The position numbers and the translations under genes were made by a program. A model generated the notes under the pieces. It saw nothing but the letters and a program-made list of their open reading frames with translations. It was not told where the DNA came from and made no database searches. Shown here one piece after another: positions 2,451-40,485 of a stretch of DNA of 64,000 nucleotides; position 1 is the stretch's first letter, and the number at the start of each line of letters is the position of its first letter. Source of the DNA: Candidatus Saccharimonadales bacterium (GTDB taxonomy: Bacteria; Patescibacteriota; Saccharimonadia; QS-5-54-17); contig JBBDUI010000002.1 in the NCBI GenBank assembly GCA_040903985.1, forward strand, positions 326,038 through 390,037. The letters run 5' to 3'.

Positions 2451-4517
2451 TTACTGCTGATTCGAGTTGGGTGCTTTAGCCTGACTAGGCTTAGCCTGGC
2501 CAGACTGACCGTTTGGTGGAGTATTCCCGCGGTGGCGGTTACGTCCTCCCCCATTCGGACGGGACTGAGACTTACCCCCACCCCCAACCAAGTTGACTAC
2601 TGGAATTACCATTGGAGCCTTACCGGTCTCATTAAAGAGAAAGCCACTAACTTCATCGCGCAAGTTCTGTTTGAAGACTTTTAGATCACTCCGACGAATC
2701 TGCTGCTTAGTGAAATCACGCAATTGGTTACGTAGGCCGTCAAGTAGTTCACCCTGCTCCTGCATGTGGATGAAACCGCGCGAGATGATATCCGGGCTGC
2801 TTAACATCTGCTTCGACTGCTTATCGACGGTCAGTACGACCACTACTATGCCGTCCTCGCCCATGAGCAGACGGTCCTTAATCACTAAGTTCGGCACAAC
2901 CGAGCCGGTCTGATCGACCAGTACCGTACCGGCCGGGACATGACCGTCTCGGTTCAGCTGGCCAGAATCGTTAAACTCAAGTACGTCACCGTTATCGATT
3001 AGTACGACCTGCTCCCGAGTGTAACCGGCGCTTTCGGCGATACTGACGTAACGTTGGCGGTGGAAATACGGACCATGATTCGGCATGATGTACTTCGGCT
3101 TGGTCATCTCAATCATCTGTTTAAGCTCATCTCGGTTACCATGACCGGAAACGTGCAATGGACCACAACCGTCGAGTTCGTGAGTTCGGTGACGGTAAAC
3201 GCTAGCACCCAGCCGCATCAGACGATCGACATTTTTCGCCACTGCCACTTCGTTACCGGGGATTGGGTTTGAGCTTAAGATCACGGTGTCGCCCTCTTTG
3301 AGCTTGATGTGGTTGTGATCGCCATAAGACATTCGCTGCAGGGCGGCGTTAGGTTCACCCTGAGAACCGGTGCAGATAATGGTCACCTCACGATCATCGA
3401 CGTTGGCGATGTCTTTCATGGCCACGATCGTACCCTGAGGAATCTTCATATAGCCCAACTTGAAGGCAAGCTCGACGGTGGCTAGCATACTGCGGCCATC
3501 GATGGCGACACGGCGGCCGCTTTCAACGGAAGCGTTAATGATCATCTGCATACGGTTAATATTACTGGAGAATGTCGAGACCAGTACTCGCCCGCTGGAC
3601 TGATGCAAAATGTCATGGAAGCTCTTCTCTAGAGTGTGTTCCGTCTCGGTACGTCCTGGGCTCTCGGTATTGGTGCTCTCAGCCATCAATAGCAATACAC
3701 CTTCACGGCCCAACTCCTCTAATCGACTAATGTCAGACGGGTGGTGATCCAGTGGTTCTGGATCGAGCCGGAAGTCACCAGTGTGGATAATGCGACCAAC
3801 TGGAGTATCTATCACTACCGCGGTACAGTCCGGAATCGAGTGAGTAACGCGTACCAGTTCGATGAAGAAGGGTCCAACCTTCAGCTTCTCATGGTTGTCG
3901 ATATTCATCGCCACTGTCTCTGGTACAAAATCTAACTCGAGGTCACTGTCTTTAATCTGTTTCTCCACCATACCGACGGTAAAGGTAGAGCCGTAAACCG
4001 GGGCCGGGATCTTCGGTATCACAAACGGAGTAGCTCCAATGTGGTCTAGGTGGCCATGAGTAAAGACATAGCCGCGTACCTTGTGTTTAATCGACTCTAA
4101 GTAGGTAATGTCCGGGATGCCGTAGTTAATGCCCGGCAGATCCAGTCCGAGGGCAAATCCACAGTCGACTACGATAGCATCATCGCCGTACTCGATTACG
4201 TTCATGTTGTTGTTACCGACCTCATCTTGACCGCCTAGTGGAGTCACTTTTAGCTTCGGTGTGCCCTCATCAAGCTGATTGGCCTGTTTCTGACGCATAG
4301 CTAATCGAGCACGGTCAGCATCGGTTACGACATCATCAAACAGCGCATTACGGTGGGCATCGTCTTGATTACGACGCACCTCACGTTCGGCTGCTCGGGC
4401 ATTACGCCGTGAATTGTGTGGCTTGCTGTTGGCCGATGACTGATTCTGCGGCCGACGATTCCGACCACGATTCCGATTTTGGTTATTGTTATTGTTCTTC
4501 TTATTTTCTTCTGACAT
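2451..4517 (-). CDS. rnj: Ribonuclease J (metallo-beta-lactamase / beta-CASP) with Arg/Gly/Asn-rich low-complexity N- and C-terminal extensions
   Basis: HxHxDH motif VFTHGHLDHIGA and overall RNase J architecture. N-terminus NNNNNQNRNRGRNRRPQ and C-terminus GGGGKSQSRPNGGGRNRHRG are low complexity. Confidence 0.85.
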   Translation of the reverse strand: MSEENKKNNNNNQNRNRGRNRRPQNQSSANSKPHNSRRNARAAEREVRRNQDDAHRNALFDDVVTDADRARLAMRQKQANQLDEGTPKLKVTPLGGQDEVGNNNMNVIEYGDDAIVVDCGFALGLDLPGINYGIPDITYLESIKHKVRGYVFTHGHLDHIGATPFVIPKIPAPVYGSTFTVGMVEKQIKDSDLELDFVPETVAMNIDNHEKLKVGPFFIELVRVTHSIPDCTAVVIDTPVGRIIHTGDFRLDPEPLDHHPSDISRLEELGREGVLLLMAESTNTESPGRTETEHTLEKSFHDILHQSSGRVLVSTFSSNINRMQMIINASVESGRRVAIDGRSMLATVELAFKLGYMKIPQGTIVAMKDIANVDDREVTIICTGSQGEPNAALQRMSYGDHNHIKLKEGDTVILSSNPIPGNEVAVAKNVDRLMRLGASVYRHRTHELDGCGPLHVSGHGNRDELKQMIEMTKPKYIMPNHGPYFHRQRYVSIAESAGYTREQVVLIDNGDVLEFNDSGQLNRDGHVPAGTVLVDQTGSVVPNLVIKDRLLMGEDGIVVVVLTVDKQSKQMLSSPDIISRGFIHMQEQGELLDGLRNQLRDFTKQQIRRSDLKVFKQNLRDEVSGFLFNETGKAPMVIPVVNLVGGGGKSQSRPNGGGRNRHRGNTPPNGQSGQAKPSQAKAPNSNQQ

Positions 4518-4545
4518 AGTTTATGTCTCCTTATTATATAATTGG

Positions 4546-5202
4546 TTAATTAGTTAATAATTCTAAAATTTGGGGTATCTGGGCAAAGTCATCCAGTAAG
4601 GTTTGCCGCTGAGCGCCGTTATACAGTGCAGCGGCAGGATGATATAGCGGCAAAAGGACTACTCGCCCATCAGCTAAGAGGTCTGACTCTAGCTGCATGG
4701 GCTTGACGTCACCCGCACCGGACTCCATCAGCTTAACGCTTTGCGGTTGCCCGTGAATGTGGCCGATAGTTTCGTTCGGCAAGAACACATTCATAGGAAA
4801 CCGTCCGAGAGTGACTACTAACTTCGGCTGAATGATTTCCAGCTGCCGAGCCAGATACGGCATAAAGGCCGCCACTTCAGCCGGAGCAGGATCTCGGTTG
4901 TCTGGCGGACGATACTTTACAATGTTAGTAATGTAGATATCATCCCGGGCTAAATTAACCGAGTCCAGCATTACGTCTAGGAATTTTCCAGCTGCGCCAA
5001 CAAATGGCTGACCACTCTCATCTTCGCGCTTACCGGGTGCTTCACCGATGAAAACGGTGCTGGCATCGGGATTGCCGGCACCCATGACTAACTGTTGGGC
5101 CGTAGCCCGTAACTCAGCAGTAGTACCACTGGTCTCAATATCTCGGGCCAAAGTATTTAACTGAAGTGTCTTATCCATAGTTACAAACGGCATAGCTAGC
5201 AC
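4546..5202 (-). CDS. Uracil-DNA glycosylase superfamily protein (family 4-like, cysteine-free)
   Basis: Motif A GEAPGKREDESGQPFVGAAGKFL and motif B LYHPAAALY. No Cys residues, so no Fe-S cluster. Start codon uncertain (alternative MDKTLQ at 5175). Confidence 0.75.
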   Translation of the reverse strand: MLAMPFVTMDKTLQLNTLARDIETSGTTAELRATAQQLVMGAGNPDASTVFIGEAPGKREDESGQPFVGAAGKFLDVMLDSVNLARDDIYITNIVKYRPPDNRDPAPAEVAAFMPYLARQLEIIQPKLVVTLGRFPMNVFLPNETIGHIHGQPQSVKLMESGAGDVKPMQLESDLLADGRVVLLPLYHPAAALYNGAQRQTLLDDFAQIPQILELLTN

Positions 5203-21169: not shown

Positions 21170-21616
21170 ATGGGAAGCGCTCACGTAGTATCGACCACAG
21201 ATAGCCGACCTACGGAAGCGGTGCTGCAGCAAGCATCACGAGCCGTCCGAGCCAACTTACGAGATCAGTTTCGTAGCTGGCGAGACGAGAGTCGACTCGA
21301 TCCATGCATCAGTCTGCCCGACGGACTGGTGGTATATCTCGAGGAGCACCGAGCTGACCAGAGTCAAACGGTCAGCGATGACCACCAGCTGACGAAATAC
21401 GGCGTTGGAATTCTCGACTATCAGGGCTGTCAGACGCTGCTGATGGTACCGGCCAAAAGAATCGTTGGGGCCTGGAGCAGTGTGCAGACCCAGTTCACTG
21501 CTAACGGCCTTGTGATCGAGAGTTGGTCGCCGGCCGATCTACCCGGCACCATCAAAGACGCTTTCCGCGTCATTGACCTGGACCGGATCGAACCCCTCTT
21601 CCCTACTAGTTGGTAG
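21170..21616 (+). CDS. Hypothetical protein
   Basis: 148 aa ORF with no recognisable motif. Confidence 0.4.
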   Translation: MGSAHVVSTTDSRPTEAVLQQASRAVRANLRDQFRSWRDESRLDPCISLPDGLVVYLEEHRADQSQTVSDDHQLTKYGVGILDYQGCQTLLMVPAKRIVGAWSSVQTQFTANGLVIESWSPADLPGTIKDAFRVIDLDRIEPLFPTSW

Positions 21617-21639
21617 CGGGGTTGTCCACTGCCCACCCA

Positions 21640-21712
21640 GCGCCAACACTTCTCAGTCGTTCCGGGATTCCTCGGGACGCGGACTGGCGAGTGTTGGCGC
21701 GTTACTTTTATA
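21640..21712 (+). terminator. Compound GC-rich hairpin / intrinsic terminator between convergent genes
   Basis: Outer stem GCGCCAACACU / AGUGUUGGCGC (11 bp) with inner stems, followed by GUUACUUUUAUACUU on the plus strand. Confidence 0.5.
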
Positions 21713-31462: not shown

Positions 31463-31517
31463 GTTAGCGTTTCCATTTAGGATTTACCCTAGTATAACGG
31501 GTTTAGAAAATTGACGC

Positions 31518-31538
31518 GACCGCCAGTGACTGGCGGTC
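31518..31538 (-). terminator. Putative terminator hairpin downstream of ORF 31577-31840
   Basis: GACCGCCAG-UGA-CUGGCGGUC, with a U-rich tract 7 nt further on the minus strand. Confidence 0.4.
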
Positions 31539-31576
31539 GTTTGATCGTCTAAATTATAAATTGTTTGATCTAGCTT

Positions 31577-31840
31577 CTACTCAGTAGTATGGCGAATCGC
31601 GATACGGCCAGCTGGATACTGAACATGCTGGCGGGCCTCTTCATGTTGCTTAGCGTCGGCCTTGGCCTCCATGGCTGTAAGTCGGGCCAATCGCACTTCG
31701 CGAGCCTCGCCCCAATGTTCCGCTGAGGCAGCGGCATGGACAGGTTCGACTAAATTACTACTTTCAAATACTCGAGTTGTCATAGTTGATTTATATTTAT
31801 TTAATTGTATTTTATCTAAGAGTTCGACCGACCATCGCAA
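31577..31840 (-). CDS. Hypothetical small protein
   Basis: 87 aa ORF with no motif. May be spurious. Confidence 0.3.
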   Translation of the reverse strand: MRWSVELLDKIQLNKYKSTMTTRVFESSNLVEPVHAAASAEHWGEAREVRLARLTAMEAKADAKQHEEARQHVQYPAGRIAIRHTTE

Positions 31841-31913
31841 AACGACAGTAATTACCCTTACCTACATCAAACTCTTATGGTTAAGGTTTGTCAATAAAGC
31901 TATACACTATACT

Positions 31914-35231: not shown

Positions 35232-36590
35232 CTAGCTGTCCTGACCAATAAGAGAGGTGAGACGGCCAACTAGCTCGTCTACCTGATCTTGATCACGAGC
35301 CTCTATATTGAGACGGAGAAGCGGCTCCGTATTACTGGCTCGGACATTAAACCACTTATCTTTGTAGTTCACGCTCAGCCCGTCCAGTTCATCCTGCTCT
35401 CCATCATTAAAAGCCGTCTTAATACGCGCGATAACGGTTTCCTTATCAGCCACTTCGAAGTTAATCTCTCCCGACTGAACATAGGAAGTACGAAAACGAT
35501 TAGCCAACTCACTTAAGCTACCTCCCGCTTCGCTTAAGACGCTCATAGCCACTAAAGCGGCAATGAGCCCAGAGTCGGCCGACCAGTTATCCCGGAAATA
35601 GTAGTGCGCCGAGTGTTCACCGCCGAATGGCGCATCATACTCCCGCATGGCTGCCTTGATATAGGAATGGCCTACCTTGGTCCGGACCGGTATACCCCCA
35701 TTCTCGCGGATAGTTTGATCCACTACCCGAGAGCAGATGGCGTTATACAGAATTGTGCTGCCCGGATGCTCATCTAAAAAATGCTCGGCCAGAATAGCCG
35801 CCGTTACACTACCAGATACAGTCTGACCTGTCTCATCTATAAGCACTACCCGGTCTCCATCACCATCAAAAGCGAGGCCTAGATCTAGACCGTTCTCGAC
35901 TACTGTCCGCTTCAACACTTCCAGCGTCTCTTCTTTGAGCGGATTGGCCTCGTGATTTGGAAACGTCCCATCCAACTCAAAATAAAGCGGTGTGATCTCT
36001 AACGGCGTCTTACCAATAAGGTGCGGAATGACGGCCCCGGCCATGCCGTTACCGGCATCGACGGCGACTCGGAACGGCTTGAGCTCGCCTGTAAAGCTAA
36101 GGGCATGCTCGACCCATGCTTTCATAATGTTAGCCTCAGCTATCGTACCTGGCGAGCACTGGGGAAATTCGCCTAATTCTACCGCCCGCTTTATATCAAG
36201 CAGACCCGTATCGACCCCCACCGGGCGAGCCTCTTCGCGACAGATCTTCATACCGTTGTATTTGCCCGGGTTATGACTGGCTGTTACAACTACCCCACCA
36301 GCCGCTCGCAGGTGCCCTACCGCGAAATAGAGCATGTCACTTGCTACCAGCCCCACGCTGATCACATCTCTACCCTGTGTCTTTATGCCGGTAATAACCG
36401 CTTGAGCTAAAGCTTTCGAATCACTCCGCATATCGTGTCCGACTATCAGCGGTTGCGAGTTAGTTTCGGGGGATTTATCAGTTAAAAACTCGGCAAAAGC
36501 GCGACCGATCCGAGTGGCGACCGCTTCATTCAACTCATCGGGGACTAGACCCCGGATATCATAAGCTTTAAATATCGCATCCAGACTCAT
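35232..36590 (-). CDS. Phosphomannomutase/phosphoglucomutase (alpha-D-phosphohexomutase)
   Basis: Active-site loop VVVTASHNPGKYNGMKI. Start set at MSLDAIFKAYDIRG (36590), which has a GGAG RBS 7 nt upstream. The tracked ORF begins 13 codons earlier. Confidence 0.85.
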   Translation of the reverse strand: MSLDAIFKAYDIRGLVPDELNEAVATRIGRAFAEFLTDKSPETNSQPLIVGHDMRSDSKALAQAVITGIKTQGRDVISVGLVASDMLYFAVGHLRAAGGVVVTASHNPGKYNGMKICREEARPVGVDTGLLDIKRAVELGEFPQCSPGTIAEANIMKAWVEHALSFTGELKPFRVAVDAGNGMAGAVIPHLIGKTPLEITPLYFELDGTFPNHEANPLKEETLEVLKRTVVENGLDLGLAFDGDGDRVVLIDETGQTVSGSVTAAILAEHFLDEHPGSTILYNAICSRVVDQTIRENGGIPVRTKVGHSYIKAAMREYDAPFGGEHSAHYYFRDNWSADSGLIAALVAMSVLSEAGGSLSELANRFRTSYVQSGEINFEVADKETVIARIKTAFNDGEQDELDGLSVNYKDKWFNVRASNTEPLLRLNIEARDQDQVDELVGRLTSLIGQDS

Positions 36591-36639
36591 CGATAGCTCC
36601 TGCTTACTACATGATTGACAATACCACAATTGCTACGAT

Positions 36640-37150
36640 TAAATACTCTGGTTGGGGAAAGTCTCCAGCACCTTACCATTGGGGTAAACAGATGCAACGC
36701 CCGACAGACTCGCAATACGAGCTACACAGCACGCACAAGCTCCCGAACGGTCGGTGCAAAGTCCTTTTCCGCCACTCCGGCGGAGGGCTCAATAGCGCCA
36801 CCCTCAGGGGGCTAGCCTCGCAAGCTGACGGCAGCACCATAGCTCGAGTCGATATCGGCCCCAACCAGGGTCGGTTCGTTAAGATCTTCCTCCACGACGG
36901 AAAGAAGATCATCGACTTCGCGCCAGCCGTACCGGCTCCAGAGCCGGAGCTCGTCAAGGCCCGATAGGGCTGATACTGCGATCCTGTGACACACGTGATC
37001 ACGGGATCAACTGCGAGACTGGGGTGACTTCCCTGCGCTGACGTCGGTGTAAACCGAAATTAGCGCGCCCCACGGCCCGAGCGGATTCCTTGTTGCGGAC
37101 GCGCTGCGTCCACGAACCCAACAGGATCCGCTCGGGCCATCTCTCTTTCA
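36640..37150 (+). other. GC-rich non-coding island A (~510 bp); candidate structured RNA or foreign DNA fragment
   Basis: About 60-65% GC against ~50% background. Six-frame ORFs here overlap on both strands and lack RBSs. Many hairpins. Ends with a ~30 bp imperfect inverted repeat (37070-37135) followed by a UCUCUCUUUC tract on the plus strand. A possible promoter TTGACA-17-(a)TTAAAT lies at 36614-36646. Confidence 0.35.
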
Positions 37151-37385
37151 TTAGAACGCTAATTATGTTATAAATACATTCCTTATGAATCCTAATAGAC
37201 TCCCTGCCGACTCCACCAACGAATCCGCGCTCCAAACAGCGCGAATTGAAGGTGTACTTGAACAAACCCTCCCACCCCAGGAGGGAGACCAATCGATAGA
37301 GAATAGAGAAGCAATGCTGCGCCAAGATATTCAGAGACTTTCTCAAGTTGCAGTTAAACAGGTTACGAGCAGAACAGAAGAGTAG

Positions 37386-38510
37386 CTACAAGCTAGAGAT
37401 ACTAGAGGCAGCTAGCTCCTTTACCTCTCCTGCTACCTGGCGGCGCTCACTTTTTCCCTCGCGCAGGATATTACTTCCCTCTATCTCGTACGCCACCCGC
37501 GTGGCAACAAGTTCATGCTCAATGCTGCGCCGTAAATTATTGGAATTGGCACTTACTACCAGAACTCTCTCATCATACTGTCCGGATACCTCAGAATCTT
37601 TATAAGCCTTGAGTTGTATCGGTACGCTAACATCGTCACGACTCGCCACCGCATCAAATGCCTGATTTTTAAGCCCGTGCCGCTTGAATCCGTCATGAGG
37701 ACGGTCCTGACGCGGAAAGCTTGAAGATATATCTATATCGTCACCTTGATGAGCCTCCCAGAGCAGACGGCGAACTGCAATCTGGTAGTACTCTTCCCAC
37801 ATGAAGCCAGTAGACACACCCTCCGTTATAACAGCCTGAATCCGTCGGATCTGATTAAGCTGAGAGTGCACAAATGCCTGCTGATATTTTTTAGCACTCA
37901 TCTCTGGTTGGTGTGTTAATAAGTAGAATTCTATATCACTTAAGTACTGATGAGCCTCTTCCTTGTAGTGGGCTGACCAAGAAACGTCACTATTAACGAT
38001 GCTGCTATACACGTCGTGCGCGGATCGAAGCAATATATCTCTGACTTGAGGGTTACGGTGCTGCAGTCCCATTTCATGTATACAGCAGCCAGCAAGTAGC
38101 TTGCCTTCTGATGGTGGTCGTTCTAGTGCCTTCTCTTTTACGAACGACAGGAATTCGGTGGGGTTGTCAGGATCCTGCTTTAAGTCCTCATCACCTAGAA
38201 AGATCAATACTAATCGAGCTAGTTCACCACCGGCCTCTTCCATAGCGTTAAAGCTACCATATGACAGATATAGTTCACGAGCAGCGCCAGTTCGACTAGC
38301 GAACGGGCGCGGTGTTTCATGAACAGTGAGAACGCTATGTCTAAGCGCCTGTAGGCGATCCTGATTTACTTCACATTCCTCTCTAGCTTCCGGGTATTCA
38401 GCGGCCATTTCTGCCCAATGATTTAGATACGGTGGTAGGGCAGGGTCGATCTCAAGCCTGGTGCTATCCTCGAGTACCCTAGATTGAGATGTTTCGTACA
38501 TATTTGTCAT
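37386..38510 (-). CDS. Hypothetical protein (374 aa, acidic, no recognisable domain)
   Basis: Long ORF with no TM helices or known motifs. Confidence 0.5.
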   Translation of the reverse strand: MTNMYETSQSRVLEDSTRLEIDPALPPYLNHWAEMAAEYPEAREECEVNQDRLQALRHSVLTVHETPRPFASRTGAARELYLSYGSFNAMEEAGGELARLVLIFLGDEDLKQDPDNPTEFLSFVKEKALERPPSEGKLLAGCCIHEMGLQHRNPQVRDILLRSAHDVYSSIVNSDVSWSAHYKEEAHQYLSDIEFYLLTHQPEMSAKKYQQAFVHSQLNQIRRIQAVITEGVSTGFMWEEYYQIAVRRLLWEAHQGDDIDISSSFPRQDRPHDGFKRHGLKNQAFDAVASRDDVSVPIQLKAYKDSEVSGQYDERVLVVSANSNNLRRSIEHELVATRVAYEIEGSNILREGKSERRQVAGEVKELAASSISSL

Positions 38511-38589
38511 GTTTGTTTTTATCGTATACTAACTTTATATACATTAGCATATTATTGCTAAATAATCAACTACTTGGTCTGCTTGCAGG

Positions 38590-38990
38590 AGACTACCCCT
38601 CGTGCTTAAATAGCCGTATCACGGTGGAAATCGTGTGAACTTAGAGAAGGAGAGCGCTGCATGGACAAGGTAAACCCGTACGCTCGTAGAGCCGGTATCC
38701 ATGCCCTACGACACGGCGACGCCGGGCAAAACGGCAGCCATGGCAAAGGTGATGATGCCGGCGGGTCCAAGCCCGCCCAACACATCACCCATAACCAACC
38801 GATGGCCAATCGGCCGCAGCCATACGGCAAGTAATGGCTTCTACGTGTCGCCCCGAACGAGCTGGCCGCATGAATGTGGCACAACAGACGTTCGTTCGGG
38901 GCAGAGCTATTAGCGATGGGCTGGACTTACCTTCAGGCTGTACACTTACCCCGCCACTCTCCTTCTCGTTTCTTTTCTTTCTTTGTATTA
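38590..38990 (+). other. GC-rich non-coding island B (~350-400 bp); candidate structured RNA / long 5' leader
   Basis: GC-rich with overlapping spurious ORFs on both strands. Hairpins include GCCCCGAACGA...UCGUUCGGGGC (11 bp stem), GGCGGG-UCCAA-GCCCGCC and GCCAU...AUGGC. Ends in a pyrimidine tract CUCUCCUUCUCGUUUCUUUUCUUUCUUUG. An extended -10 candidate TGCTTAAAT lies at ~38633. Confidence 0.3.
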
Positions 38991-39077
38991 AGCCAGATCT
39001 AAATTTAATACCGACTAACCACCTTTGTCCTTGTCGGTGTTTCAGCGTATTGTAGTGGCAATACGAGGTTTACCACG

Positions 39078-39314
39078 GTGAGCATAGAGCGATTTCGACA
39101 AAAGCAACTCAGCAGCAAAGAGGCATCTGAAGCACTCGATGAAACGGATGATAACCAGAGTGAAGCTGAGCACCTAGACATCTTCCAAGAGGCTATCATG
39201 CAGGCACTGCCGGCCAGCGTTACAGTACATTTCTTAGCGGACGGAACACGCGTATTTGAGATCGAAACCAACCCCCCAGGAACTATGCTGCCAGTCGATC
39301 ATGAAACGGATTGA
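39078..39314 (+). CDS. Hypothetical small acidic protein
   Basis: 78 aa ORF immediately downstream of island B. Its 3' end overlaps the convergent gene by 32 nt. Confidence 0.3.
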   Translation: MSIERFRQKQLSSKEASEALDETDDNQSEAEHLDIFQEAIMQALPASVTVHFLADGTRVFEIETNPPGTMLPVDHETD

Positions 39315-40485
39315 GCGCTGCCTCTAAGGTCCGTTGTTCGGAAAGCTGTAAGGGTTGGTTGGCGTAGTCCTTACCCATCGCCCGAGCTGCCCCCCCAAGC
39401 ACCTCCGATAAACCAACCCCATCTTCAAAACTAAAAACTATCTTCTCGATGTCGGGCAGACACTCTGTAGTTCCGCCACCTACTTTTAACTGAATTGGGC
39501 GCGACCTAGGACTTCCACCCTCCCCTCTTTCCGTCACTATGATGTTGAAACCGTGCTTTGGTACTTGGTGCGTATTGCGCGTGCCGCCCCGATTTGATTT
39601 CTTGGTTACATGGAACCACGGCTCCTCCTCACGCGGTAGAGCGGTACGGATAAAGGAGTCCCTATGTAGGCTAGCCTGATCGATAAAGCGCCGGTAAGCC
39701 AGCACCGAGAACCACTCCAGACATAATCTGCGGGCATGAGTAGCGGTACCGTCTAGCTTTTTACGTAACTCATCCCGCTCTTGACCCTTAGCCCGCATAA
39801 GCCCCTGTCGTATCCGCTCCTCATGTTGATTCAGTTGATTTAAATAAAGTAGAAAATCGTTGATGTAGGCTATCTGTAGATCTTTATGCATCGACCGTAA
39901 CTGTTCCAGTCTGTATGTGCCCGCTTTTGTGGCATCGAACACTCGCAAAAACTGAATGTCGTAGCTATAGCGCAGAGCGTGCTGCGCGTTAACACCGATT
40001 AGATCATCCTTCTCCTGATCTAGAACTCCCTGATACTGAGCTAAAGCCCGGCTCAACATCGAGGCCCGGAAACTACCGTCACTAACGAGCGCCGACTCTT
40101 CGAATAGACACCCGCTCAGCAGCTGGTCATGTGTCGCATACTCCCCACGTTCAGTGCTGGCTTCAGCTCTACGCTGCAGGATCAGTCCGGCCTCGGCTAG
40201 AATCTCGTTAGCTCCAACTAGCTGATTCAAACTACCTAAACGGTAGTAAAAGTTCTTTGCTTCAGTTGAAGAATCTCTACCTGCCTGATCCCAAGTATCA
40301 CCAACGACACCCTCCATACGCTTACTACACTTGTCAGTGGAGCGAGCGATATCCTCGATATCTTTATTACTTTTTATCATCTTAGGATGGCCACTGATGA
40401 AATCTGACCAATAGTCTCGATATGATGAAGCGGCCTCAGAGGCCGCTTCATCATATCCTTCGCTCAACTTTTCGCTAGATTGCAT
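39283..40485 (-). CDS. Hypothetical protein (400 aa, no recognisable domain)
   Basis: Long soluble ORF with no TM helices or known motifs. Confidence 0.5.
   Translation of the reverse strand: MQSSEKLSEGYDEAASEAASSYRDYWSDFISGHPKMIKSNKDIEDIARSTDKCSKRMEGVVGDTWDQAGRDSSTEAKNFYYRLGSLNQLVGANEILAEAGLILQRRAEASTERGEYATHDQLLSGCLFEESALVSDGSFRASMLSRALAQYQGVLDQEKDDLIGVNAQHALRYSYDIQFLRVFDATKAGTYRLEQLRSMHKDLQIAYINDFLLYLNQLNQHEERIRQGLMRAKGQERDELRKKLDGTATHARRLCLEWFSVLAYRRFIDQASLHRDSFIRTALPREEEPWFHVTKKSNRGGTRNTHQVPKHGFNIIVTERGEGGSPRSRPIQLKVGGGTTECLPDIEKIVFSFEDGVGLSEVLGGAARAMGKDYANQPLQLSEQRTLEAALNPFHDRLAA

Follow-up and report, generated by a model that had tools for sequence, protein, structure and literature searches.

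The genome of a Candidatus Saccharimonadales bacterium contains, on contig JBBDUI010000002.1, a stretch of 64,000 nt (hereafter the window, to which all coordinates refer) in which a G+C-rich region, island A, lies between manB and a small conserved gene. A first-pass annotation of this DNA described island A as non-coding and proposed that it is either an unrecognised large structured RNA or a fragment of foreign high-GC DNA. In this study, we analyse the composition, the expression signals and the folding of island A and compare it with the corresponding position in related genomes. On balance, we favour the reading that island A is a monocistronic cassette for an orphan, lineage-specific small protein encoded on a heavily folded mRNA.

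Concerning the genes at the locus, the NCBI annotation lists manB as WD467_01880, followed by WD467_01885, WD467_01890 and WD467_01895. As a mechanically called open reading frame (ORF), manB extends from 35232 to 36629 with a TTG start at 36629. Its true start is probably the ATG at 36590, which has a GGAG upstream and agrees with the N-termini of homologues and with the NCBI protein (452 aa). WD467_01885 lies within island A and WD467_01890 is the 66-aa gene on its right. The latter shares an N-terminal motif with L084_124 and L082_74 (L numbers denote loci of other genomes), and its TATAAAT -10 box is kept in L084 and L082. By its manB, the window belongs to Saccharibacteria (metagenome-assembled genomes of Saccharimonadales). 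Sampling of this lineage is thin: among 5.8 billion proteins no manB homologue comes closer than 72% identity, and the best in GTDB genomes has 69%.

The order of genes around island A is conserved. It comprises a Mur ligase, a 400-aa ORFan, a 374-aa ORFan, a small gene of 66-124 aa, a further small gene on the strand opposite to manB, manB itself and groES/groEL; some relatives carry a 170-aa gene between this further small gene and manB. We refer to the position of this further small gene as the slot. The order including the slot recurs in L082, L084, L085 and L109-L113, and island A occupies exactly the slot, between manB and the conserved small gene.

In 11 related lineages the slot holds a small protein-coding gene rich in G+C at third codon positions (GC3), with 126-180 codons where complete and one copy ended by a contig edge. 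Six of these genes (L082, L002, L085, L109, L110, L112) encode a 135-aa family whose members match each other with E values of 1e-13 to 1e-65. In the four pairs compared, identity at the three codon positions indicates coding-type evolution (e.g. 0.72/0.72/0.49 and 0.58/0.67/0.36). A second group is formed by L001 and L111 (E 3e-10), with weaker links to L107, L084 and L113. The GC3 of the slot gene exceeds that of neighbouring genes in six of seven relatives compared (0.64-0.71 vs 0.45-0.63), the exception being a truncated slice of L107 that is possibly out of frame. Island A has the position, the orientation, the control signals and the GC3 bias of the slot genes in common with them; the control elements are shared and only the middle differs.

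The features of island A and its right boundary are collected in Table 1.

Table 1. Features of island A and of the adjoining transcription unit, in window coordinates (MFE, minimum free energy; UTR, untranslated region).
Feature	Position	Strand	Details
Predicted sigma-70-type promoter	36615-36644	+	-35 TTGACA 36615-36620, 18-nt spacer, -10 TTAAAT 36639-36644; from sequence
5'-terminal stem-loop	36651-36669	+	GUUGGGGA-AAG-UCUCCAGC, 8 bp, in MFE fold
Shine-Dalgarno-like motif and start	36681-36694	+	GGGGU 36681-36685, 6-7-nt spacer, ATG 36692-36694
91-codon ORF, hypothetical protein WD467_01885 (NCBI/PGAP)	36692-36967	+	ATG 36692, stop TAG 36965-36967
Structured 3' UTR	36959-37073	+	three hairpins; MFE fold
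Unpaired motif ACUUCCCU	37027-37034	+	single-stranded in MFE fold, 3' UTR
Branched hairpin, putative terminator	37074-37138	+	outer stem 13 bp perfect, to ~15 bp; 3' linker CACGAACCCAACA
Pyrimidine tract UCUCUCUUUC	37140-37149	+	after hairpin; pyrimidine-rich, no U run
Next unit 3' of island A	37169-37385	+	-10 box TATAAAT 37169-37175, 66-aa gene 37185-37385; right boundary of island A

At its 5' end, island A begins with a near-consensus promoter. The first-pass annotation had named the same two hexamers. The spacer is 18 nt and not 17 as it gave, and the overlap with the start of manB that it noted falls away with the manB start at 36590. A simple consensus scanner missed this promoter owing to its rule on position 2 of the -10 hexamer. 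The block TTACTACATGATTGACAATACCACA (36604-36628), which covers the -35 box, is identical at 25 of 26 nt in the closest relative, L084, and L107 has TTGACA-17-TTTAAT at the same place. In the window, L084 and L107 alike, a hairpin follows at a matching distance of 5-9 nt from the -10 box; its sequence differs among the three (UCUAGGG-AGAGA-CCCUGGA in L084, GCCUGGA-GAG-UCCAGGU in L107). 5'-terminal stem-loops are known to stabilise mRNAs, e.g. in the E. coli ompA 5' UTR and the B. subtilis aprE leader. Like these, the island A hairpin begins a few nucleotides from the predicted transcription start, and its position is conserved and its sequence is not. The comparison is one of analogy, and both the transcription start and a stabilising role in island A are predictions. 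Downstream of the hairpin, GGGGUA and the start codon are kept in all three loci (window CAUUGGGGUAAACAGAUG, L084 CAUGGGGUAGGACAAAAUG, L107 CAAGGGGUAUCUCUUG), and PGAP likewise places the start of WD467_01885 at this ATG.

The 3' end of island A is marked by a long branched hairpin that lies 106 nt past the stop codon and ahead of the -10 box of the next gene. The first-pass annotation had seen a terminal imperfect palindrome here. The element is real: its arms (37074-37086 and 37126-37138, 13 nt each) are 100% complementary and enclose an inner hairpin, GGACGC/GCGUCC (37097-37111), and the pyrimidine tract follows. The RNA as it was written out earlier, however, is the minus-strand reading of this near-palindrome. 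The whole terminal element folds with -44.8 kcal/mol (z -7.6). L084 is identical in the outer stem (GCCCGAGCGGA/UCCGCUCGGGC) and in the inner GCGGAC, and the same architecture stands 3' of the slot gene in L001, L002, L082, L085 and L109-L113, giving 10 relatives with L084. In all of them the outer stem measures 10-15 bp, the inner hairpin sits on the 5' side and the 3' linker stays unpaired, with a pyrimidine tail after the hairpin; the tracts of relatives read UUCUUCUAUUC, UACUUCUAUUU, CUUUCUUCC and similar.

In several respects this element resembles Rho-independent terminators: the unit closes with a G+C-rich inverted repeat and a pyrimidine-rich tail, and a separate -10 box for the next gene lies 30 nt downstream. 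It differs from the canonical form in that the hairpin is much longer (65 nt, as compared to hairpins of 7-20 bp), is branched, with the inner hairpin placed 5' and a 3' linker of 8-16 unpaired nt, and is followed by a mixed C/U tail instead of a U run. Moreover, the architecture and partly the sequence are kept across genomes whose manB is only 63-72% identical to that of the window. A simple terminator scanner made no call at 37074-37149. Long hairpins end other genes of the window too, e.g. at 21640-21700 and 40419-40457, and this genome thus makes a habit of long terminators.

Between these ends lies the 91-codon ORF. The first-pass annotation had reported only overlapping ORFs in several frames and no ribosome-binding site; the ATG at 36692 stands 7 nt past the conserved GGGG(U) motif. 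The predicted product contains MQRPTDSQYELHSTHK. G+C contents at the three codon positions are 0.65/0.46/0.74 as compared to 0.60/0.41/0.53 for the genes of the window, and the GC3 of 0.74 contrasts with 0.52 in manB. Of the six frames, that of the ORF scores best for codon usage once its own base composition is normalised for. The score exceeds those of all 4000 dinucleotide shuffles and of all 620 stop-free shuffles; scored with a 3-periodic Markov model, the frame surpasses 99.2% of off-frame windows from real genes. The designation of island A as non-coding is thus not upheld: the slot is protein-coding in relatives, the control signals and the start are kept, and the PGAP-annotated ORF is intact and carries a codon-usage and GC3 signal.

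That island A is rich in G+C and in hairpins, as first described, is borne out by the numbers. Windows of 200 nt at 36700-37100 have a GC content of 0.60-0.615, and 36739-37138 is the top 400-nt window of the 64 kb (0.625 vs a mean of 0.508 with a standard deviation (sd) of 0.035, i.e. +3.3 sd). The GC content of 36680-37079 is equalled or exceeded by only 0.23% of 400-nt windows. Folding of 36630-37160 with RNAfold gives z -7.84 on the plus strand and -4.41 on the minus strand. Without the terminal hairpin (36650-37070) the values are -6.56 and -3.70, as compared to -0.45 and -0.32 for two coding control stretches. Among 142 background windows of 300 nt (mean z -0.64, sd 1.84), the one that overlaps the 3' part of island A is the strongest on both strands. 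Taken by itself, the 91-codon ORF reaches z -3.9 relative to dinucleotide shuffles, and the 106-nt stretch of 3' UTR at 36968-37073 has z -4.3; for the slot genes of relatives, z lies between -0.7 and -3.2. The MFE fold includes a long-range helix of 36698-36714 with 37011-37025. Most likely, the GC excess stems from GC3-rich codon usage, a trait of slot genes in related Saccharimonadales, together with the G+C-rich helices of the UTRs and the terminator. Two other 300-nt windows also fold strongly, 31501-31800 (z -4.5/-3.8), inside an AT-richer intergenic gap of 451 nt (31463-31913), and 4501-4800 (z -5.7/-4.9); neither 31463-31913 nor 4501-4800 has an Rfam family at gathering score.

Since the promoter and the transcript end are conserved in relatives, island A is most likely a discrete, vertically inherited transcription unit, a conserved cassette around a fast-changing coding body. 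The earlier notion of a plus-strand unit with its own promoter and a hairpin at the transcript end gains support from this conservation. We infer the following course of expression. The promoter would start transcription a few nucleotides before the 5' stem-loop, ribosomes would load at GGGGU and translate the 91 codons, and the hairpin-rich 3' UTR together with the 65-nt branched hairpin and its pyrimidine tail (37074-37149) would end and protect the transcript.

Such a gene would have much in common with the orphan small genes of Saccharibacteria and other members of the Candidate Phyla Radiation (CPR). The ORF is short, lacks both a Pfam domain and homologues, is labelled hypothetical protein, and sits among clade-restricted ORFans (the 374-aa, 400-aa and 66-aa genes). 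Unlike ordinary orphan small genes, it forms the 400-nt stretch of highest GC content in the window, folds far beyond ordinary genes, and has conserved expression signals around a coding body that is not recognisably conserved.

Several observations weigh against a small-protein gene. A phmmer search of the ORF against 1.84e9 representative proteins returned only the query itself. The coding score is lower than that of about 98% of genuine gene windows, and an open frame of 90 codons after the ATG at 36692 occurs in 9% of shuffles (P 0.09, not significant). AlphaFold2 in single-sequence mode predicts a beta-meander with a mean pLDDT (predicted local distance difference test) of 57.5, i.e. with low-to-medium confidence. 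The ORF product likewise shows no relationship to the slot proteins: Smith-Waterman alignment with standard gaps gives z -0.4 to -1.0 for five proteins and +0.5 for L107, hhalign gives E 0.7-0.9, and hidden Markov models (HMMs) of slot proteins (7 and 5 members) searched against the six-frame translated window have no match in island A. Solely under permissive-gap alignment does L107 reach z 3.4. Folding, too, speaks on this side. The plus-strand value of island A without its terminator is far outside that of normal genes. About half of the excess of the ORF is retained against synonymous-codon shuffles (z -2.05, P 0.015), so the folding comes partly from the encoded sequence and partly from synonymous sites. 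Finally, no closer relatives or strain variants were present in the collections searched (GTDB genomes, 5.8e9 proteins, contigs with an identical 374-aa gene, JGI metagenomes), and hence neither dN/dS (the ratio of nonsynonymous to synonymous substitution rates) nor covariation was measurable. The one contig fetched of the four with an identical 374-aa gene (L081) is 100% identical to the window, and a scan of JGI metagenomes with the conserved hairpin stem gave 19 matches, all in unrelated high-GC contigs.

Two resemblances of the ORF product were pursued and given up. That to manB residues 175-252 (tblastn E 0.19 in a tiny search space) is taken as chance, and Pfam PGM_PMM_II has no match. 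The N-terminal motifs NGRxKVxF and KYS..WGKQ, seen by eye as common with slot proteins, find no support in the HMM and hhalign comparisons. Moreover, a pseudogene of a known protein, a possibility already raised in the first-pass annotation, is rejected: the ORF has no match in Pfam and none but itself among the 1.84e9 proteins, and the most protein-like minus-strand frame, which has two internal TAG codons, has none among 5.8e9.

The foremost alternative, a minority view to which we give clearly less weight, is that the transcript of about 490 nt (about 36650-37140) acts as a structured non-coding or dual-function RNA in which the ORF is incidental or of secondary importance. This is what has become of the unrecognised structured RNA first proposed: the unusual structure stands, no known family was found, and the proposal is no longer the leading one. 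The orphan status and unsurprising length of the ORF fit this view, as do the plus-strand folding excess, which persists without the terminator and in the 3' UTR alone, and the top rank of the 3' part of island A among the background windows on both strands. The MFE fold, moreover, contains two GNRA tetraloops besides the long-range helix. These are found, by reading of the sequence, in two of the three hairpins of the 3' UTR, namely GCCC-GAUA-GGGC (36959-36970, overlapping the stop codon), GAUCCUGUGA...UCACGGGAUC (36980-37008) and GCGCU..UCGGU-GUAA-ACCGA..AGCGC (37036-37066).

Known structured RNAs provide a mixed comparison. The GC-rich intergenic-region (GC-IGR) approach flags large structured bacterial RNAs such as OLE, GOLLD, ROOL, raiA and HEARO (PMC8632094). 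Like these, island A is long, GC-rich and highly folded and has no recognised protein. Unlike them, it has no model match at E <= 10, no homologues and hence no covariation, and a phase-consistent ORF at a conserved start site. At the gathering threshold, Rfam 15 (whose models cover 6S RNA, riboswitches and introns as well as GOLLD, ROOL, HEARO, OLE and raiA) finds only five tRNAs in the whole window. At E <= 10, it finds in 36400-37400 only an 18-bit chance match of Scr2736, a model of a Streptomyces small RNA (sRNA), on the palindrome. ARAGORN finds neither a tRNA nor a transfer-messenger RNA (tmRNA) in 36000-39500. RNase P, tmRNA, signal recognition particle RNA and the large ornate RNAs are ruled out by these searches, the first three in agreement with the first-pass annotation; the likeness of GGGGAAAGUC to P4 of RNase P belongs to the simple 5' hairpin.

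One concrete version of this RNA reading places the function in the 3' part (about 37020-37145), which would be a regulatory sRNA derived from the 3' UTR. Here ACUUCCCU is single-stranded, and two hairpins and the terminator lie 3' of it; ribosome-binding sites rich in G would be the pairing partners of its C/U-rich seed. Eight of 11 lineages (the window and L084, L001, L111, L113, L085, L109, L112) have CUUCCC(U/C) as an unpaired motif in the slot transcript, either in its 3' UTR or in the terminator loop, and the L082/L002/L110 subclade lacks it; in the whole window the motif occurs 27 times, about the chance level and thus with no enrichment. sRNAs with C/U-rich seeds include RsaE/RoxS and other UCCC-motif sRNAs of Firmicutes, and sRNAs derived from 3' UTRs are known as well. 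The analogy with the RsaE/RoxS type lies in an unpaired CUUCCC flanked by helices just before or within a terminator hairpin. Unlike in that type, there is no sequence or Rfam relationship, the motif of the window is in a linker and not in the terminator loop, and the target and a processed 3' fragment are hypothetical.

The motif is also complementary to the 5' hairpin, where GGGGAAAGU (36654-36662) could pair with ACUUCCCU; in L084 the counterparts are CUAGGGAG and UUCCCUAG. In addition, GUUGGG of the 5' hairpin (36651-36656) is complementary to CCCAAC in the terminator linker (37117-37122). As L001, L111 and L109 show little or no such complementarity between motif and 5' UTR, we treat both 5'-3' pairing and an sRNA-like seed as leads only.

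The RNA reading is further opposed by the lack of an Rfam family and by the middle 400 nt, which have no homologue and hence lend it zero covariation support. The three-base periodicity and the codon usage in the frame of the conserved start are unexpected for a pure non-coding RNA, and the slot is protein-coding in every relative examined. All told, we think it improbable that the transcript serves mainly, or in addition, as a functional structured RNA, either as an RNA of about 490 nt replacing the slot gene or by way of a conserved CUUCCC module in the 3' UTR. If so, this module, common to most related slot transcripts, would regulate G-rich ribosome-binding sites or close the mRNA via the 5' hairpin.

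Ranked slightly below the functional RNA, and in our judgement rather unlikely, is a decaying remnant: the ancestral slot gene would have been truncated or scrambled, leaving a transcribed but functionless ORF between intact signals. The 91 codons as compared to 126-180 in complete slot genes, the unusually long 3' UTR of 106 nt, the loss of any similarity to slot proteins and a coding score between those of genes and of non-coding frames would all be expected of it. Even so, the frame is intact from the conserved start, its codon usage is above every shuffle, and promoter, 5' hairpin and terminator are fully intact. Decay leaves unexplained a folding that exceeds that of any relative's slot gene. 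Furthermore, dead DNA in a reduced genome of 50% GC is usually deleted or drifts to genome composition, whereas island A is the GC peak.

A foreign high-GC fragment inserted upstream of manB, e.g. from an actinobacterial host, is very improbable. Two points speak for it. Island A has the highest GC content of the window, and 36915-36948 matches, over 34 nt and at 85% identity, a stretch that lies 15 nt upstream of manB in two related loci of Actinomycetes metagenome-assembled genomes (L066 3953-3986, L048 351-384) and is oriented to manB as in the window; its score is equalled by only 1 of 300 shuffled queries. This match, however, has no extension, has neither a protein counterpart nor an Rfam family, and does not occur in other loci of Actinobacteria and Saccharibacteria. 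The promoter with the 5' UTR and the terminator are common to Saccharimonadales relatives, and most of the GC excess falls on third codon positions, a pattern also seen for the slot gene in six of seven relatives. Neither the ORF nor the minus-strand frame has a protein match, blastn in distant mode against plasmids and phages found nothing in island A, and no flanking repeats or mobile-element genes adjoin it. With both flanks conserved and a GC excess that keeps to codon phase, a horizontal origin as first suggested is unlikely, and a plasmid or phage origin is rejected on the blastn result.

Other mobile or guide elements were likewise discarded. An integron attC site does not fit, as the order GTTG ... 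CAAC of the palindrome is the reverse of RYYYAAC ... GTTRRRY on both strands; Pfam searches of the neighbouring genes found no integrase. For a retron, a diversity-generating retroelement or a TnpB/IscB guide RNA there are no matching cores and no genes for partner enzymes nearby.

Two further places in the window have a similar layout. Island B (38600-38905, GC 0.57-0.615) contains a 57-codon ORF (38661-38834, plus strand, WD467_01900) whose coding score is normal (0.157) and whose ribosome-binding site, AAGGAG, is strong. Downstream come a branched hairpin of the island A architecture (about 38850-38902) and a pyrimidine tract; at the position of island B, L082 has only a gap of 293 nt. Islands A and B have no sequence similarity, and a relationship beyond the common terminator architecture is rejected. 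At 21170-21700, a 148-codon ORF (plus strand, GC 0.57) with CUCUUCCCUA near its stop codon is followed by a long near-perfect hairpin (21640-21700) and a U-rich tail, a layout like that of the slot cassette; the slot-protein HMMs do not match this ORF. Of the neighbours of island A, the 374-aa protein (37386-38510, minus strand) and the 400-aa protein (39283-40485, minus strand) are paralogues from a clade-restricted family without a Pfam domain, and the former has a single homologue (56% identity) among the 5.8 billion proteins. The 66-aa gene and the convergent 374-aa gene abut with zero spacer and no terminator between them, so their transcripts must overlap.

Taken as an orphan small gene, island A is nothing unusual in a CPR genome, and the NCBI annotation already lists its product as a hypothetical protein. 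Its wider meaning is that GC-rich, strongly folding islands of Saccharibacteria that look intergenic can be GC3-rich, fast-evolving small genes, which RNA-discovery screens based on GC content and folding would flag as false positives. The comparison moreover exposes as conserved a cassette of strong promoter, 5' hairpin, branched terminator and CUUCCC motif around a hypervariable body. This suggests an abundantly expressed, rapidly diversifying product, or else a regulatory element in the 3' UTR. A rapidly diversifying product may be relevant to the epibiont lifestyle.

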